Positions 25,716 through 53,141 of a stretch of DNA of 64,000 bases are shown one piece after another. Positions within the stretch are counted from its first letter, which is position 1. Each line of letters begins with the position of its first letter. A model generated the notes under the pieces. It saw only the letters and a program-made list of their open reading frames with translations. It ran no database searches and was not told the origin of the DNA. The position numbers and the translations under genes were made by a program. Origin of the DNA: Candidatus Poribacteria bacterium (GTDB lineage Bacteria > Poribacteria > WGA-4E > PCPOR2b); the NCBI GenBank assembly GCA_965215015.1, contig OZ244042.1, positions 1,184,001-1,248,000 on the forward strand. The letters are read 5' to 3'.

Positions 25716-26744
25716 ATGCAAGAGGTATACGCGCTGTTTTTGAACACAGTTATCAACGGTGCTCTTGCCCTTTGGGTATACAAGGATAGTAGACTGCAAG
25801 AGCGATCTGGGTTTTGGGCTTTGGGGACTTTTTTTTTCCCGTACGCATGTTTCCCACTTTACTTTTGGAATCAGATGCCCGAACTCATCTGGATTTGCCC
25901 TAAATGTCAACGCGATAACCGGGCATGGTCGCGTAAATGTGAACGCTGCGATCAATTTTACACAGCGGAAGAAACAGTTGCAAGACTGCACGGCTATCTG
26001 AATCCATCAGATCCGGTAGTCATTTTCCTAGTAACCTTTTTATTTCAAGAGGTCGCGCGTTATGTCGCAATGTTAGCGGCGGAAGGGGTTGAAGGCCTTA
26101 TATCAACAAACTTAGCTGCGTATATGCTCCCAGCTTCCCACTTTTGGATCGTTAAGCTAGTCATTGGAAATGTGCTAATTTGGCTATCTCTTTTCTGCAT
26201 AACTGGGCGTTATCGCAGAAATGTGAGATCTCTTGGGTTGGGATACAGCGGCAACCGTGCCGACTTTGGACTGCCTCTATTGCTCGCACCCGCTTTAGCC
26301 TTTGTTTCGGTAGGTTTTCGGCAAGGGATAGATTGGTTCAGCGGACACATCCCCCTGGAAGGACTAGAGAACTTAGCTCAATGGGAGCAGCAGCAATGGT
26401 CGAACAGTATGCCAGAAAACTTCGGAGATAGTACAATAATCCTCCTCGGTTTTGTGATGTTAATTCTAATGCCAGTAGGGGAGGAGATTCTATTTCGGGG
26501 AATTGCGTATATCGGTCTCGCCGGTCGATTTGGTCAACCCAAAGGAATACTACTCAGTGCCCTCCTTTTTGCGGTGCTCCATGGATACATCCGTGCTTTC
26601 ATGCCGTTGGTTTTGGGAGGGATTCCAATATTTATCATGGGGCTTGCCCTCGCGTGGCTATACATTCGGACGAAATCGTTAATCCCGTGCATAATCACGC
26701 ATAGCTTGGTAAACTTGATTTTAATCCTGATTCACTGGATGTAA
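25716..26744 (+). CDS. CPBP (CAAX/Abi) intramembrane metalloprotease with an N-terminal RanBP2-type zinc finger
   Basis: EEILFRG, FAVLH and HSLVN motifs; WICPKCQRDNRAWSRKCERC. Confidence 0.87.
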   Translation: MQEVYALFLNTVINGALALWVYKDSRLQERSGFWALGTFFFPYACFPLYFWNQMPELIWICPKCQRDNRAWSRKCERCDQFYTAEETVARLHGYLNPSDPVVIFLVTFLFQEVARYVAMLAAEGVEGLISTNLAAYMLPASHFWIVKLVIGNVLIWLSLFCITGRYRRNVRSLGLGYSGNRADFGLPLLLAPALAFVSVGFRQGIDWFSGHIPLEGLENLAQWEQQQWSNSMPENFGDSTIILLGFVMLILMPVGEEILFRGIAYIGLAGRFGQPKGILLSALLFAVLHGYIRAFMPLVLGGIPIFIMGLALAWLYIRTKSLIPCIITHSLVNLILILIHWM

Positions 26745-27842: not shown

Positions 27843-27874
27843 AATAGCTGCGTCAAACGCTATCTCCTAATCCG

Positions 27875-28040
27875 TATTCCCTACAAGAAAGTGTGGACGC
27901 TCTCCTGTTTCGGTATTCCAGATACGGATTTTGATCCCAACTCCGACCGACGAGTATGCGACCCTCCGGACCAAAAACGATGCTCAAGACATGGCTCTCA
28001 TGCCCGGTGAGCACTCTGATTTCCTCGCCTGTTTTAACGT
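27875..28040 (-). pseudogene. WD40-repeat gene fragment
   Basis: Minus strand: NVKTGEEIRVLTGHESHVLSIVFGPEGRILVGRSWD, frameshift, KIRIWNTETGE. Confidence 0.65.
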
Positions 28041-28235
28041 TCGACAGGCGGGTTATCTTGTGCAGCTATTTGATAGAAATAGTGCAGAGATTAGCAATAA
28101 AATGAGGCTAAGAAACATCGTCTTTTGCATTGAGATTAATTTTCCGTTAGGAATCGGAGCAGGTTGAGCGCAGCGAAATCCCGATGTCTCGGGAGAGATT
28201 GCTGCCCGCTCCCCTGCTCGCCGTTTCAATACTTA

Positions 28236-28478
28236 TCAATTGAGCTTCTGCATCGCGGCAATCATATCGTCGTCTGACGGATTGCTTTTCACCATCTCAA
28301 CAAACTCGTCAGCGTCTAGCTTGTGTTCCTCCAGGAACTTTTTGTCCTGCGGTCACGGATAGATGTATTCACCGATAGTACCGTTCAATTTGGCACGCGC
28401 CTTATCTGTAACCCGCGCCAACCACCAGTACCCGCCAATGAGCATATCTCGATGACGTGGTTTCCAATCGAGTCCCAT
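28236..28478 (-). CDS. DUF5069-like protein, candidate selenoprotein (UGA at codon 42), 80 aa
   Basis: AAGGAGGTGA RBS; MGLDWKPRHRDMLIGGYWWLARVTDKARAKLNGTIGEYIYP-TGA-PQDKKFLEEHKLDADEFVEMVKSNPSDDDMIAAMQKLN-TGA TAA; GTTCC-TGGA-GGAAC hairpin downstream of the UGA. Confidence 0.75.
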
Positions 28479-28601
28479 GTAATTCACCTCCTTTACGTCA
28501 GTCTCAAACCCAGAAGCCGAACTCCTAAAAGACAGGATAACGGAGATACCAACGATACACCCGTCTCATTTTCACGTCTACTCGTCCTCTCGTTTTCAGG
28601 C

Positions 28602-31600
28602 TTATTGGACGTCCGCCTCAATCTGCTTCAAGGTCGCTTCAAGGAGATTAAGGTAACGTCCATATTCCGCCCAATTTCCTGTGCGTTGTGCTGCTTGTGC
28701 CGCCTCAAACTGCTCCCGCGCCTGTTTTGCCAATGCCGAAATAGATATCGATTCGGTGGCACTCACCCCTTCGGCGGCTTCATCAGCGGATAGAATATCT
28801 TGCGTCAGCGCGCCCTCCAACCGCTTGCCGAACATGTTAATCAACGCCTCATCAAGGCTCGCCCCCCATGCGACATTCTCCTTATAGCCCACAACAACGC
28901 GACGCAATTCAGGAATTGCGGCTTCTTCGTTCTCCGCTTGGATATAGATTGGCTCAACATAGAGAATCGCCTCATTCATTGGGATAATAAGTAGGTTACC
29001 GCGCAGGACGCGTGAACCCTGTGTATTCCACAAGCTAATCTGCTGGGAAATTCCAGGTTCTTGCGTAATGAAATTTTCCACCTGCATCGGTCCAGGGGCG
29101 AGCTTTCCCTTCGGGAACCGATAGACAAGCAGTTGTCCATACTGCGGTAAATCGCATCGCGCAGCAATCCAAGCGGTAAGATTCGGCTTGTTTTTCGGTG
29201 TGAAGGGGAGCATCAGAACAAATTCCGCACGTTCCTCTCCCGGTATCTTGACAACCACATAGTAAGGCGCAACCTCTTGCACATTTGTGACCGTCTCCGG
29301 CAATTGTTGGGTACGAGCAAATGGACTTGGGGGTTGCGGTGCCTGAGCGGGACGAAGACGCTCAGTGTTATCGTAAAGCTCCTCACCAATCTGCCACTGG
29401 TCTTCACTCGCGTAGAACGTTATCGGATCCTTCATGTGATAATCCTGATACATTTGCGCCTGAATGCGAAACATGGTAGTCGGATAGCGGATATGCGCCT
29501 TGAGATCTGCGGGCATCTCATCGAACGATTTGAATAAGTCGGGGAAGATACGGCGATAACACTCCGCAACCGGATCTTGCTCCTGCTCCATCAGATAGAA
29601 ATTCACGCTGCCATCGTAGGCATCAATCGTGACTTTGGCGGCGTTGCGGATATAATTTCCCCACGGCCTTTCGCCACCGACGACGCGCCCCGCAGCGCGT
29701 CTGCCGCCCTGTTCCGCAATGGTTCTGCGGATGGCATCCTGCATCGGTGCGGAATAGGGATAGCGGGCGGTCGTTGTATAAGCATCAATCATCCAGATCA
29801 GCCGACCGTTGTGGATGACAAGGTACGGGTCAACATCATATTTCAGGAATGGGGCGATTTGGTTGACGCGCTCTTTTATGTTTCGATTGTAGAGAACCCG
29901 ACTCGTTGATTGGATTTCACCGGGCAGGATGAAATTGAGCGCGTTGTTGAATTTCAGCATGTACGCAAACTTTCGCAAGAACGAAGAGAGTTTGACACCC
30001 CCCTCGCCTTGGTAAGAGTATTTGGCGAAATCTTGTCCAAACGTTTCGGGGTAATCAAACTCAAGGCTCTCTAATCGGTCTGGGTGGACGATGACATAAT
30101 GGTTGGTGCGCTCGCCGTAGTAAATTCGGGGACCAGGGTTGTCGTTAAACCGATATGACCATTCAGGTTCGTAATTGATTGGATCCATATCTCGAATGTA
30201 CATCTTCGGCTTCCCGTCCAGGATTTCGTTCACAGGACTTAGCACTGCTCCATAGCCGTGGGTATAGACGTAAGTGCGCTTAAACCAGTCCCGACTCACT
30301 TCACGGTCCAAATCGTTGATATTCAGTTCACGCCCGGCAAGCATCACCTGTCGAGGTTCACCGCTTTCCATCGTGTAACGATCGATATCTACGTCGGGAA
30401 AATCGTATTGTGAACGCAACTCCTGCAGCTGGCGGAAAGTTCGCCGCAGCGGACGCCAATCCCAAAGCCGGATGCTGTTAATCACCGCCGCATTCTCCTG
30501 CCCCGTGATGTTATCATAAGACAATTCCCCCATCAAAGGGTACTCCGTCTCTGTCACGGTGCTATCCTCCAAATCATACGCGTGCAGCGTTGCCCTGATA
30601 TTATAGTTGATATATCTGCTCTCAAGTTCCTGCTTACTCGGTTCAACTTTCAGCTTTTGAACGATACGGGGATAAGCTTGTCCCATAAAGGCAACAAGTA
30701 TCAGAACAATAACGCTCCCAACAGCGAAGGAGATACGTCGTAGAAAGATGCTGATGAAGAAGATCAGCGCACAGGCGGTGGTCAGCGCGAGCAGTATCCA
30801 TAACACAGGCAGCCGTGCCTGTATCGCTGCGTAACCGCCCCCACTCCGCACAACATCGTTGGTCGTGTAGAGCAGGTCATACATCACAAACTGATAGTTC
30901 CATGCACGAAACAGCAATGTCAACCCAATCAGTATAAACAGATGAGTCTTGACGCGCTGCGGCGGTGCGAAGCGGTTATCCTCATTAATGAGTAGTCCGT
31001 GAAAAAAGTAGAGTACCCCCGTAAACAGGGTGACTAACATGAATAGACCGAAAAGATAACCACAGATCAGCCGTTCCAAGGGCATCCGAAAAACATAGTA
31101 GCTGACATTCTTATTGAAAACGGGATCCCGCGCAGTGCCGACCAAAACCGCATCTTCAGTAGCATCGAAGCTAAGCCCTTGGTTTAATGCAATTCTAACG
31201 CTCCCATCACCAGCCGGACTTATCGAGCGGATTTTCGCGCTATGACTGCTATCTTCCTCTTCGATTGTAACCGCATCCCCTACTTTAAGTCCTTTTGCAC
31301 TATATTCCAATTCAGAAATAAGGACCTCTGTCGTATCCCGATTTGCCGGTGCATCGAGCGACGTTGCGGATTGAAAGGAAAGATTACTAGCGTTTGAATA
31401 GCGGAGAAATTGCTCCCAGTAGTCTGTCGAGGCATAACCGCCCACGATACTCCCTCCAATCGCCAAGAGTGTCAGTACCACATAAACAGCTTTTCGGAGG
31501 TTAAAATCGGGCATCCCTTCAAGGGGGATCGATTCGACCAGCGTTGGACTCAGTCGAGGGGGGGTAAAGCGATACAGCAGATAGAGATTGGTGAGGGTTA

Positions 31601-31793
31601 CCGCAAGAAAGAAACCACCGACAACAATTCCCAACCCTATTTTTGTCAGTAGCACCTTTTTGTAAATGGCGAGATAGCCGACCATATCAAACCAGAGCAG
31701 GTCGGGATAGATTTTGACGAACAGCGCACCCCCGCCAATAATTACTACTAGAACAACAAGGGTAATAATCAATCGAGTCAAGTTTGCTTGCAT
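28602..31793 (-). CDS. UPF0182 family membrane protein
   Basis: LWF, DPVF, IRLWD, DIDRY, YTHGYG, PRIYYGE, NYIRN and LYVEP motifs. Confidence 0.95.
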   Translation of the reverse strand: MQANLTRLIITLVVLVVIIGGGALFVKIYPDLLWFDMVGYLAIYKKVLLTKIGLGIVVGGFFLAVTLTNLYLLYRFTPPRLSPTLVESIPLEGMPDFNLRKAVYVVLTLLAIGGSIVGGYASTDYWEQFLRYSNASNLSFQSATSLDAPANRDTTEVLISELEYSAKGLKVGDAVTIEEEDSSHSAKIRSISPAGDGSVRIALNQGLSFDATEDAVLVGTARDPVFNKNVSYYVFRMPLERLICGYLFGLFMLVTLFTGVLYFFHGLLINEDNRFAPPQRVKTHLFILIGLTLLFRAWNYQFVMYDLLYTTNDVVRSGGGYAAIQARLPVLWILLALTTACALIFFISIFLRRISFAVGSVIVLILVAFMGQAYPRIVQKLKVEPSKQELESRYINYNIRATLHAYDLEDSTVTETEYPLMGELSYDNITGQENAAVINSIRLWDWRPLRRTFRQLQELRSQYDFPDVDIDRYTMESGEPRQVMLAGRELNINDLDREVSRDWFKRTYVYTHGYGAVLSPVNEILDGKPKMYIRDMDPINYEPEWSYRFNDNPGPRIYYGERTNHYVIVHPDRLESLEFDYPETFGQDFAKYSYQGEGGVKLSSFLRKFAYMLKFNNALNFILPGEIQSTSRVLYNRNIKERVNQIAPFLKYDVDPYLVIHNGRLIWMIDAYTTTARYPYSAPMQDAIRRTIAEQGGRRAAGRVVGGERPWGNYIRNAAKVTIDAYDGSVNFYLMEQEQDPVAECYRRIFPDLFKSFDEMPADLKAHIRYPTTMFRIQAQMYQDYHMKDPITFYASEDQWQIGEELYDNTERLRPAQAPQPPSPFARTQQLPETVTNVQEVAPYYVVVKIPGEERAEFVLMLPFTPKNKPNLTAWIAARCDLPQYGQLLVYRFPKGKLAPGPMQVENFITQEPGISQQISLWNTQGSRVLRGNLLIIPMNEAILYVEPIYIQAENEEAAIPELRRVVVGYKENVAWGASLDEALINMFGKRLEGALTQDILSADEAAEGVSATESISISALAKQAREQFEAAQAAQRTGNWAEYGRYLNLLEATLKQIEADVQ

Positions 31794-31884: not shown

Positions 31885-34827
31885 CTAAAATGCCTGACCT
31901 AAACCGAAATGGAACGTTGTATCCGGATCGATACTAGCGAGATCTGTGCGACGTGCTACGTCAAAGTCGAGCGAGAAAAACCCAAGCTGCAATCGAAGTC
32001 CAACGCCAATTGAACCTTTGGCATCATCAAGGCGAAGTCGATTGCCCTCGCGTCGGAGCAAGTGGTAGCGGTTGTCGGAATCAAATTCACCGTCCGACCA
32101 AACCGTTCCGAAGTCCGCGAAGATAATCCCACGAATGCCGCCAATTGCCCACGAAAAGGGCCAACCGAAACGAAGCTCGTCTATAAACGGAATCCGAAGC
32201 TCAAAGTTCAACAACCCCATCCGCGTCCCAATCAGTTCTTCATAACTATAACCGCGTAGTGTATCAATGCCACCAAGGTAAAATAACGACTTATCTCTGG
32301 CAAAACTCCCGCCGAGCAGCAAACGGGTTGCGAAGGTCGAACGCCTGCCGAGCTTAAAGTATCGACGGAGGTCAAAAATGAGGTTGGTTAACTCCAAATC
32401 GCTCCCGGTCGCACGAGATGACTTCTCAAGGGTCAGATTATAACGAGTACCGCTATAGGGGCCGAACACCTGCCATCGTGTCGTGTCGCTAACCAGGGAG
32501 AGAGTTGCAAGCATCAGAAGCCCACGATTATCTTCGTAATCCGTCTCAAATCTGAAAGCGTAGGGAGTGGAATACATCAACAACTGTAACTCCGCGCGAC
32601 GATACCGATTGAAAGGATAGGTGACAGAACCGGCAATGCCCGTTAAACGTTGCGAGACACGGCGACGATTCCGGGTCGTCCCCAACAGGTGATACTCATG
32701 AAAATTAAAAAGGGAGGCACCAAAATCTGCACGGCGCGAAAGGGAACCGTACCGGGCAATGAAGTCCGGCGCAAGGAAACCTGACTGATTCTGAACACTC
32801 AATCCCAAGCGATGATTCCCCATCATATCGCTCGCGACCAGCTCCGTCGAGTTGCGTAGTATACCGTCAGCACCGAGACTGAAGTTTGTAAAAATAGCAT
32901 CCAAGCCAATCTTCGTGCCGTACTTCCGATGCCCGATTCGGCGCTGTTTTCTTTCCGTAGGCTGTATGGCAATGGTCTCAATTTCAGAGGGGGGTATCTC
33001 AATCTTTTCATTAAGTGCCTTCTCCGCCTCCATGACATAAACATCCTGCTTACCCGATTGGTAAGCACCAAACAGGAGGTGCTTACGGTCTGGTGAAAAA
33101 CTCGGATTGAAACAGCCAGTGATGATATTGGTCAGCCGCGTGAGGTCGGTGCCGTCCGATTGCACAGTACACACGTCATAGACACCACCCATATCTGAGC
33201 AGAAAAGCAGCTGCTCCCCACCGTCCGTCCAACGAGGATTAACCGCATTGTACTCACCGTGCGTCAACTGTCTTGAGGTTTGACCGTTGACATCAATAAC
33301 AATTAGCTCGTACTTACCCCCTCGTTCCGAGGTATAGGCTCGCTCCGATGCGTAAACAATCTCTTCCTTCGTTGGATGCCATGAGGGATGGCTATCGTCA
33401 AAGGGATCATTTGTCAGGCGTGTCAGCTCTTCTGTCGCTAGGTTTATAATAAATAGGTCAGTTTGCCCCCTACTGAGCGCAGAAAAAACAATCCGCTCAC
33501 CGCTGCTGTCATAGTTTGGCGAACCAGCAGCATCGAAGTTGAGCTTGATGCGGCGTTCCAGTTGCTTACTGATGATGTTTACCTCAAGCAGATACTCCGA
33601 TTCGCGGTGCTTGGCGATAAAGGCGATACGGTCACCATCCGGAGACCATGCTAACCCACTACCGTCGCTCCGAATCTCTTCATATTTACTCCCAAAAAAA
33701 TCTTTGCTTATACGTTCCAGGCGGCTGCCATCTCTGGCAGACGCAAGAACAATTTCACTAAATCCATCGTTACCTGTGATATAAGCGATAAGGTCCCCGC
33801 TAGGAGACCAAATCGGTTTCACGTTATGCGAATAACGTGATTTCTCTGTCAAGTTCTTGGCGATTGAGTCAGGCATATCCTTGTGATCGATCATTGGCCA
33901 ATACTTCTTCTGCACCGTCAAACGCCAGTCTTTATCAAACTGTTCAAGACTAACACCGATCACGTTCTGGAAGGCCTGGTTGAGATCCTTGGTACGGATA
34001 TGACGCAGTTCGTGCATAATTTGCCCAATCTTATCCCGCCCATAAGTCTCAACAAAATATGCCACAGCGGACTGCCCCATCTTATATCCCAAAAACACCT
34101 GCGATCCGAGTATCCGAAAATCCTGAAGCCGCGTCAAGGGAACTATACGATTGGCAATGCTGGCATCTCTTAATACCATCTCTCCAACGGCATCATTATC
34201 ATTACCAAAATAATCTGCTGTCCCCTCCATAAACCAGATTGGGGGGCTATACAGAAACTCACCGCTATAAAAATGCCCCGCAGGCTTCTGATAAATGATA
34301 TCATACTGAAAGATGTGGACCAATTCGTGAAAAATGACCTCACGAAATGCCGACATAGAGCCGGTGAAAGGGATAACCATACGCCGCTTAAAGAGCTCTG
34401 CAAAACCGCCGACACCTTCATGCAGCTCAGCCAGCGTAATATTGGTCTCCTGAAAATCTTTGTGGGATTGATATAAAATCAGTGGTGTCCGATCCCTAAG
34501 CTCGTGCTCAAAATCCTCGCTATGTTTCTCGTAAGCCTCCTCAACAGTGTCCGCCATGATAGAGACCAGCTGCTCCTCGCCCGGATAGTAGTAGATATCA
34601 AAATGATCTGTCCGGTGAATCAGCCAATCAAAATCCTGGTCCGTCACCTTATTCTTACCAAAGCCTTGCGCCCAACCACTGCTAACCGAAAGGAAAAGGG
34701 GCAGTAAAAAAACAAGCAGGAGAGAAAAGGAGAAAAATCTCCCGTTTTCATCGCGTCTTTGCGTCTTTGCGTCTTTACCTTGCCTTTGTAATCTGTGATG
34801 TCTATGATATCCGCGATCGGTTTTCAT
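31885..34827 (-). CDS. Peptidase MA-like + PD40/TolB propeller + BamA/Omp85-type beta-barrel protein
   Basis: QGFGKNKV, HELVH..WFMEG, WSPSG/WSPDG repeats, LRGY motif, C-terminal Phe; start uncertain. Confidence 0.88.
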   Translation of the reverse strand: MKTDRGYHRHHRLQRQGKDAKTQRRDENGRFFSFSLLLVFLLPLFLSVSSGWAQGFGKNKVTDQDFDWLIHRTDHFDIYYYPGEEQLVSIMADTVEEAYEKHSEDFEHELRDRTPLILYQSHKDFQETNITLAELHEGVGGFAELFKRRMVIPFTGSMSAFREVIFHELVHIFQYDIIYQKPAGHFYSGEFLYSPPIWFMEGTADYFGNDNDAVGEMVLRDASIANRIVPLTRLQDFRILGSQVFLGYKMGQSAVAYFVETYGRDKIGQIMHELRHIRTKDLNQAFQNVIGVSLEQFDKDWRLTVQKKYWPMIDHKDMPDSIAKNLTEKSRYSHNVKPIWSPSGDLIAYITGNDGFSEIVLASARDGSRLERISKDFFGSKYEEIRSDGSGLAWSPDGDRIAFIAKHRESEYLLEVNIISKQLERRIKLNFDAAGSPNYDSSGERIVFSALSRGQTDLFIINLATEELTRLTNDPFDDSHPSWHPTKEEIVYASERAYTSERGGKYELIVIDVNGQTSRQLTHGEYNAVNPRWTDGGEQLLFCSDMGGVYDVCTVQSDGTDLTRLTNIITGCFNPSFSPDRKHLLFGAYQSGKQDVYVMEAEKALNEKIEIPPSEIETIAIQPTERKQRRIGHRKYGTKIGLDAIFTNFSLGADGILRNSTELVASDMMGNHRLGLSVQNQSGFLAPDFIARYGSLSRRADFGASLFNFHEYHLLGTTRNRRRVSQRLTGIAGSVTYPFNRYRRAELQLLMYSTPYAFRFETDYEDNRGLLMLATLSLVSDTTRWQVFGPYSGTRYNLTLEKSSRATGSDLELTNLIFDLRRYFKLGRRSTFATRLLLGGSFARDKSLFYLGGIDTLRGYSYEELIGTRMGLLNFELRIPFIDELRFGWPFSWAIGGIRGIIFADFGTVWSDGEFDSDNRYHLLRREGNRLRLDDAKGSIGVGLRLQLGFFSLDFDVARRTDLASIDPDTTFHFGLGQAF

Positions 34828-38105: not shown

Positions 38106-38149
38106 CTTGATTCTTTCAAGACGGATATGATAAAATTAGAAACCCTTTT

Positions 38150-38233
38150 GCCGGAGTGGTGAAATCGGTAGACGCGCTGGACTCAAAATCCAGTGAGCTT
38201 AGGCTCGTGTCGGTTCGAGTCCGACCTCCGGCA
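38150..38233 (+). tRNA. tRNA-Leu(CAA)
   Basis: Cloverleaf, anticodon loop CTCAAAA, long variable arm, GGTTCGAGTCC; no encoded CCA. Confidence 0.96.
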
Positions 38234-38240
38234 TTGACCC

Positions 38241-52801: not shown

Positions 52802-52818
52802 AAATGATGGCTTGTGAG

Positions 52819-52890
52819 TGCCGGTGTGGAGAGTTGAACTCCAGACAGCACGATTATGAGTCGTGTGCTCTACCACTGAGCTACACCGGC
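52819..52890 (-). tRNA. tRNA-Met(CAT), probably elongator
   Basis: GCCGGTGTAGCTCAG...CTCATAA anticodon loop...GTTCAACTC; paired 1:72; G4/G5 acceptor stem. Confidence 0.9.
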
Positions 52891-52961
52891 ATAAGAAAAA
52901 AGGGAAATGCACCTGAAAAAGCACATTTCCCATAGGCTTTCCTGCCTCCAATAGAACCAAA

Positions 52962-53038
<77 letters not shown>

Positions 53039-53053
53039 CCAAGATTTAGAAAA

Positions 53054-53141
53054 TGGTGGGCGAGGAGGGATTTGAACCCTCACACCCATTTACGGGCGAT
53101 GGATTTTAAGTCCATTGTGTCTGCCATTCCACCACTCGCCC
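53054..53141 (-). tRNA. tRNA-Leu(TAA)
   Basis: Anticodon loop CTTAAAA, long variable arm, encoded CCA. Confidence 0.95.

Follow-up and report, generated by a model that had tools for sequence, protein, structure and literature searches.

A short gene on the minus strand of a Candidatus Poribacteria genome very probably encodes a functional 80-residue selenoprotein, one that would be made by canonical bacterial recoding and that belongs to a family, DUF5069, for which we found no listing among selenoproteins. The gene lies in the window analysed here, a stretch of 64,000 nucleotides from contig OZ244042.1 (positions 1,184,001 to 1,248,000, assembly GCA_965215015.1), and coordinates below are those of the window unless they are marked as genome positions. 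Our judgement draws on comparative sequence analysis. The recoding mechanism itself is very likely ordinary, and what is new is the family, its conservation throughout the phylum, and a lead to a functional residue of DUF5069.

The coding sequence occupies 28236..28478 (-), as defined by its translation and its Pfam match. It opens with an ATG at 28478-28476, and a Shine-Dalgarno site, AAGGAGGTGA, can be read directly at 28484..28493 (-), 5 bases 5' of that ATG. The core of this site, GGAGGTGA, stands 5' of the start in most of the 61 orthologous loci described below, and since a GTG at 28487 falls within the Shine-Dalgarno site itself, we take the ATG as the start. There follow 41 sense codons, ending ...GEYIYP, and then an in-frame TGA at 28353..28355 (-). 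This is codon 42, the one we propose is read as selenocysteine. Another 38 in-frame sense codons, ending ...MQKLN (last sense codon 28241-28239), run to a terminating TGA at 28238-28236, which is abutted by a second stop, TAA, at 28233..28235 (-). Downstream of codon 42, a SECIS-type hairpin, GTTCC-TGGA-GGAAC, occupies 28325..28338 (-), with a stem of 5 bp (GTTCC/GGAAC) and the loop UGGA at 28333-28330. It starts 15 nt 3' of the TGA, and its loop comprises bases 20-23 after the A of the UGA. In bacterial SECIS elements, the stem-loop stands about 20 nt downstream of the UGA.

A preliminary description, made from the letters of the window alone, had set out this same arrangement of Shine-Dalgarno site, start, two runs of codons, double stop and hairpin with a G-containing loop, and each element lies where it was placed. 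It had also remarked that the gene is missed by the open reading frame track, and indeed the standard list contains only a 44-residue ORF ending at the codon-42 TGA. Taken together, the gene features, the TGA and the hairpin are far beyond chance expectation, because in all 141 related loci (two overlapping sets combined) the frame first reaches a stop at codon 42, always TGA, and the 5.94 Mb genome has a single copy of the 14-base hairpin word.

In the mechanism that we propose, the ribosome would start at the ATG behind its strong Shine-Dalgarno site and, at the UGA of codon 42, the hairpin GUUCC-UGGA-GGAAC, 15 nt downstream, would recruit SelB with Sec-tRNA(Sec). Selenocysteine would be inserted, and translation would continue for 38 codons to the TGA TAA double stop. 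The selenocysteine would thereby take the place of the family's conserved Cys in Y-P-(C/U)-P-x-D.

That family is identified by the product of read-through. The 80-residue protein (P0001) matches the Pfam DUF5069 model (PF16798) at 60.6 bits, against a cut-off of 27, with residues 7-77 aligned to profile positions 4-74 of 133, and the match crosses the TGA. A six-frame search of the genome against DUF5069 gave 54.8 bits and followed the profile up to position 74/75. The full-length domain of 133 positions is absent, as the ORF ends at residue 80, and the Poribacteria protein is, as judged from this alignment, an N-terminal half-module of DUF5069. A solved relative, PDB 3omd_A, a 145-residue 'Uncharacterized protein', was matched at E 1.2e-14, and a Cys of 3omd_A falls on the UGA column (...GEYTYNCPLDQ vs ...GEYIYP-PQDK). 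The Poribacteria protein resembles DUF5069 and 3omd in its significant match and in possessing both family motifs, and differs in consisting of half a domain only and in having Sec for Cys. No relative other than 3omd was returned by the PDB profile search, a search of the ESM Atlas gave no usable match for the natural homologue P0184, PADLOC holds no family for the gene, and a DUF1858 search of the genome produced no match.

The wider family agrees with the solved structure on the identity of this residue. We aligned 185 domains from 166 proteins, consisting of P0001 with C inserted at the UGA together with the matches of two large database searches. In the UGA column, C is found in 128 domains, S in 23, W in 11 and a gap in 9, the remainder having other residues. 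The 9 gapped rows are proteins truncated at the UGA, and the W rows reflect TGA translated as Trp by other pipelines, as a check of the DNA bore out for P0019 (L171, 99% identical, TGA). Two motifs are common to the family, R-x-x-D-K-x-R and Y-P-C-P-x-D, with the UGA on the Cys of the latter. The motif that the preliminary description had given for DUF5069, ..DKARA...GEY.YPCP.D with the UGA exactly on the Cys, was thus sound. D25, K26 and D45 are invariant in the alignment, and P7, R8, R22, R28, F59 and D69 are nearly so. In other proteins the half-module is free-standing at about 80-100 residues, or it is joined to another domain, which is Cupin_2 in 3 of the 18 proteins scanned and elsewhere DUF2249, a methyltransferase, CO_deh_flav_C or dienelactone hydrolase, and the cysteine of P-C-P-x-D is retained in all these fused forms. 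The Poribacteria protein has no Cys besides position 42. Elsewhere in this genome, a paralogue of 284 residues (G000:C1:48086-48940; L070:1057-1911, +) carries two full DUF5069 domains in tandem, in which a G-E-D-S-G-x-D stretch replaces the cysteine of P-C-P-x-D, and part of the family accordingly lacks the Cys that corresponds to Sec in our protein.

The TGA is not peculiar to this assembly, being present in the loci of relatives and on an independent contig. In a set of 61 genomes (the genome under study and 60 relatives, from four families and 15 genera), an orthologue at 65-99% identity is present in every genome, always with a single in-frame TGA. A scan with one genome per species found 130 relatives, of which we used the best 80, 77 of them labelled Poribacteria and 3 'uncultured bacterium'. 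The independent DNA contig comes from another study (run X5) and spans the stretch, with no difference listed at the UGA. Within a larger sample of 176 genomes of the phylum Candidatus Poribacteria, 168 have an orthologue at E <= 1e-16. Codon 42 is TGA in 160 of these and TGC or TGT in 8, which is the alternation of TGA and Cys codons that had been anticipated for homologues. The 8 genomes in which the search found no orthologue belong to f5 (three), f10 (two), f11 (one) and f2 (two, 81% complete). All 8 genomes with TGC or TGT belong to family f8, which is of a different order in the same class, and their Cys orthologues are single uninterrupted ORFs. SelA is kept in 7 of these 8 genomes, so the Cys form represents a change in the gene and not a loss of the Sec trait. 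Orthologues of another family, f3 (L039-L042, L046, L049, L050, L054, L056, L057), are extended at the C-terminus by about 13 residues rich in Lys and Ser, KPSKKRKSKSRKS, up to a TGA stop.

Sec and Cys forms also alternate outside this sample. A metagenome scan with P0019 as query gave 40 loci, 18-19 of which are Cys forms. A second marine clade, recognised by M-D-x-L-S...DFRPRSR and about 52% identical to our protein, has UGA in 16 of 17 loci. The hairpin region is visible in 15 loci of this clade, 14 of which share the identical GTTCCTGGAGGAAC core, and the hairpin here extends to seven pairs (AAGTTCC/GGAACTT). One locus, L179, has a GGGAC variant that changes E to G in the protein and keeps a U-G pair, and L184, the lone Cys member, has a decayed hairpin element. 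Four more metagenome loci are of the Poribacteria type and have UGA. In a third clade (EWKPRGR...DWSDFRV), which otherwise has Cys, the exceptions are L202 (TGA) and P0086, a truncated database protein. A tree of 57 sequences implies at least three Sec/Cys switches and nests L184 inside a Sec clade with support of 100/100; it is built on few columns, is midpoint-rooted only, and does not place the Cys family f8 firmly.

Comparison between genomes also bears on the hairpin. Among 90 distinct 63-nt segments, the five core pairs are standard in all 450 cells, and the four core-pair variants that do occur (G-C to A-U, G-C to G-U, U-A to U-G and C-G to U-G) all still pair. About two thirds of the sequences have two extra outer pairs, and these covary: pair 6 is A-U in 52, G-C in 6 and unpaired in 32, and pair 7 is U-A in 57, A-U in 3 and unpaired in 30. 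The covariation score is 0.050, compared with 0.032 +/- 0.005 for shuffled alignments, and was reached by 0 of 500 shuffles, a count that, owing to the relatedness of the hairpin sequences, is not a probability. When the partner strand is slid, the proportion of paired cells falls from 90% to 25-67%, and RNAalifold finds this hairpin as the only consensus helix.

The best-surviving alternative, which we nevertheless consider highly improbable, is that the hairpin is not a SECIS element and instead reflects protein-level conservation of F-L-E-E, a terminator or some other regulatory element, with Sec insertion directed otherwise. The hairpin does overlap the conserved FLEE residues, and part of its conservation is at the protein level, yet the codons themselves are fixed to a degree that the protein does not call for. 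Codons 48-51 (F, L, E, E) are TTC in 101 of 101 coding sequences, CTG in 100, GAG in 101 and GAA in 100, with a synonymous entropy of 0-0.08 bits, whereas the same amino acids are free elsewhere in the gene: F59 is TTT in 66 and TTC in 35, E37 is divided 43 to 41 between its codons, and L31 uses five codons. This freeze of synonymous sites is the strongest evidence for the hairpin. Moreover, the rare changes preserve pairing even where they alter an amino acid, as in the E to G replacement of L179, and the element is lost exactly where UGA becomes UGC or UGU, with FLEE giving way in Cys forms to FLEK, FLER, WLQK, FLQR or FLKQ and pairing lost in step. A simple scan flagged the reverse complement as terminator-like on the plus strand, but no plus-strand gene ends nearby.

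The remaining points in favour of that alternative are the short stem and the fold of the single sequence. The stem has only five pairs in this genus, and the minimum-energy fold of this genome's own 60 nt (z-score -0.79) prefers a competing CAGGA/UCCUG pairing. That competing stem is not conserved, as it includes the variable third base of codon 44 (CAG in 63, CAA in 31), and in lineages with the seven-pair stem the hairpin under discussion is the minimum-energy fold. The fold proposed in the preliminary description stands as a consensus structure across genomes and does not stand as the preferred fold of this one sequence. With the single-sequence fold so weak, it is the comparative evidence, and not thermodynamics, that carries the argument for the hairpin. 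A search of Rfam gave only sub-threshold chance matches. What we find is thus a stem-loop with a G in its apical loop and constraint at the RNA level, with the 5 bp stem and the non-minimum-energy fold as caveats. Hairpins of like form follow the UGA in other genes of the same genome. That of selD is AGTCC-AGTT-GGACT, that of the peroxiredoxin-like gene Prx5 is GTTCTCC-AGTT-GGAGAAT, and that of an Rdx/SelW-like gene is CCGTCA-GTT-TGACGG. The hairpins of selD and Prx5 resemble that of the DUF5069 gene in having a short stem and a four-base, G-containing loop about 20 nt 3' of the UGA, while in Prx3 and the Rdx gene the G-containing loop has three bases and sits a few nt further 3'. No comparable hairpin was identified after the UGA in the other four peroxiredoxin-like genes or the CMD gene. 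In its core pairing, its frozen codons, its decay in Cys forms and its likeness to the selD and Prx5 hairpins, the element behaves as the SECIS-like structure it had been suggested to be.

The genome is equipped for selenocysteine insertion, as the suggestion of a Sec codon presupposed. At genome positions 4763339-4764436 lies selA (529 bits), followed by selB at 4764545-4766440 (371 bits, cut-off 242) and tRNA-SeC(tca) at 4766553-4766646, the three standing head to tail in one cluster (G000:C1:4763339-4766646). A selD gene (369 bits), which also has an in-frame TGA, lies away from this cluster. Selenoproteins are numerous in this genome, with at least nine other genes of known selenoprotein families that have one in-frame TGA each: six AhpC/TSA genes, Rdx, a CMD/AhpD-like gene and selD. 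Positions of other UGA genes (G000:C1) are 5599224-5600045, 2692529-2692921, 2801177-2801560, 5639612-5639992, 4567523-4567912, 5383547-5383762, 5655296-5655454 and 3518779-3519699. Two of the genome's peroxiredoxin-like UGA genes are adjacent to each other. A rough scan of the whole genome for a UGA followed by a hairpin yielded 232 candidates, and because of this noise we relied on family searches in its place.

These features bear on a second alternative, that the UGA is read as Trp or Cys through a reassigned code or a suppressor tRNA, or is passed by near-cognate read-through, without selenocysteine. Several metagenome pipelines do write W at this position (P0002-P0008, P0010-P0012, P0019). 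In this genome, however, TGA terminates 861 of 2603 open frames of at least 300 codons, a third of them, and the genome thus uses the standard code; the sole tRNA with a UCA anticodon is tRNA-Sec, beside selA and selB. The homologous residue is Cys, not Trp, a reassigned codon would need no conserved hairpin at the expected distance, and the genome has the other known-family selenoprotein genes with a single in-frame TGA. We regard this alternative as more doubtful still than a hairpin of other function, and selenocysteine as the residue that codon 42 most plausibly specifies.

Selection has acted on both sides of this codon. Among 101 distinct coding sequences (600 sampled pairs differing at 15% of bases or more), codons 2-41 give a pN/pS of 0.168 and codons 43-79 one of 0.196, which becomes 0.191 without the hairpin codons. 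Near-saturation of pS makes these ratios rough, but the two halves are alike. The UGA is therefore flanked on both sides by conserved coding sequence in a single frame. That the TGA is simply a true stop, closing a 41-residue product upstream of a pseudogene, of a small gene in its own right or of a remnant that is not translated, is the least credible explanation of all: TGA is a normal stop codon in this genome and public records do give the product 41 residues, under the names 'hypothetical protein' or 'DUF5069 domain-containing protein', in one case alongside a 40-residue ORF for the C-terminal part, but purifying selection is alike downstream and upstream, the 38 downstream codons continue the DUF5069 profile in frame, no in-frame start codon lies between the UGA and codon 62, the Cys orthologues are uninterrupted, and a nonsense mutation would not last at one codon in 160 genomes.

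RNA-library contigs of relatives would fit transcription through the entire frame. Three sponge metatranscriptome runs, from two studies, yielded contigs that map to the gene with 85-99% likeness, and one of them, the 201-nt contig X19 (record 9), covers 28278-28478 and so bridges the UGA. DNA carry-over is possible in such libraries, and they are silent on translation. Contig depth in the RNA libraries is greater over the gene than over its flanks, although such depths cannot rank genes. Between the gene and pheA, about 390 bases (27843-28235) are without a convincing ORF in this genus, and RNA-library contigs of relatives reach from the gene to about 28150.

The surroundings of the gene are stable among Poribacteria. 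Directly upstream on the same strand lies a gene for a UPF0182 membrane protein (28602-31793, -; 1063 residues, 796 bits). UPF0182 is upstream in 79 of 80 Poribacteria loci, and pheA (chorismate mutase/prephenate dehydratase) is downstream in 57 of 80. We considered this neighbourhood as a clue to function and dropped it, as the second marine clade has other neighbours (solute-binding and HDOD response-regulator genes) and the linkage in Poribacteria is plain synteny. Other features of the window were noted in passing. At 31885-34827 (-), a 980-residue ORF combines Peptidase_MA_2, a DPPIV_N/PD40 beta-propeller and a C-terminal Omp85 domain, which is unusual for an outer-membrane protein. A CPBP/Rce1-like intramembrane protease is encoded at 25716-26744 (+), and its N-terminal RanBP-type zinc-ribbon scores 26.7 bits, just below the cut-off of 27. 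Four tRNA genes (from a genome-wide ARAGORN run, with coordinates converted) lie at 38149-38234 and 52818-53141; they are a tRNA-Leu(caa) and a cluster of two tRNA-Met(cat) with a tRNA-Leu(taa).

The preliminary description had not counted this family among described selenoproteins, and the main texts of the published lists agree. DUF5069 or PF16798 is not named in the family table or main text of a 2026 review (PMC13188914), and word searches brought up no DUF5069 in a 2022 review (PMC9312934), in the paper on deep-Sep (PMC12013277) or in that on BSepDB (PMC13326102). One of these papers counts about 111 selenoprotein families. The searched literature makes no mention of DUF5069 or PF16798, and hence we found no published function for any member; papers retrieved for '3OMD' were unrelated. 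Literature on Poribacteria together with selenocysteine or selenoprotein contained, as judged from the listing, nothing on this gene. An NCBIfam scan of P0001 gave no matching model, which excludes the families listed in the 2026 review that have NF or TIGR models, among them GOS_B and GOS_C (PMC13188914). The DUF5069 family may be identical with the 'hypothetical protein GOS_A' of 2008, which was described with two Sec sequences, 155 Cys homologues and no domain (PMC2398784); we compared the two by description only.

Set beside canonical selenoprotein genes such as fdhF, selD and those of Sec-peroxiredoxins, the DUF5069 gene is alike in having its UGA at a Cys position, a stem-loop within the gene about 20 nt downstream, and selA, selB, selC and selD in the genome. 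It is unlike them in that its family goes unlisted in the main texts named above and in that its stem is at the short end, with 5 bp, or 7 bp in about two thirds of sequences. It is also like small uncharacterised selenoproteins predicted in silico by comparative genomics (such as GOS_A/B/C and the DUF1858-, DUF3179- and DUF523-containing proteins), which share the Sec/Cys pair, the SECIS-like hairpin, the small size and the single Sec. The DUF5069 protein differs from these in having no CxxU or UxxC, its motif being YPUPxD with a single Sec. The present analysis would thus add a selenoprotein family not found in the main texts of the published lists, and it corrects a systematic mis-annotation, the gene being stored in public Poribacteria genomes as a 41-residue fragment or as two fragments.

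Selenocysteine is nearly always a redox-active or metal-binding catalytic residue, and for this reason the Sec/Cys pair points to the functional residue of DUF5069. The preliminary description had suggested a redox or metal-binding role. By analogy, there is about an even chance that this residue is a redox-active nucleophile. With no other Cys in the protein, the residue would then cycle through one of three oxidised states: a selenenic acid, a selenenyl-sulfide formed with an external thiol or partner, or a diselenide between two molecules. If the residue is redox-active, the module could serve as a small thiol/selenol oxidoreductase or as a redox sensor. Against a catalytic role throughout the family stand the Ser of 23 of the 185 domains and the tandem paralogue without the Cys, and together these imply that the residue is dispensable for the fold.

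A broader joint reading can be offered tentatively, and we place it somewhat short of an even chance. Under this reading, the N-terminal module of DUF5069 would be an unrecognised redox-active fold in which the Cys or Sec of Y-P-(C/U)-P-x-D is catalytic, with the Sec form near-universal in Poribacteria. The identical SECIS core in a second marine lineage would then mean that the Sec form is old or that it has moved together with its SECIS element. If true, the gene would mark small selenol oxidoreductases or redox sensors of a new class, relevant to life inside sponges, and would provide a functional handle on the whole DUF5069 family.

Retention of the gene in 168 of the 176 sampled genomes suggests that it has a central part in the physiology of these sponge symbionts, which are uncultured. 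For DUF5069, whose structure is solved and whose function is undescribed, the exchange of Cys and Sec at a single position indicates a probable active-site residue.
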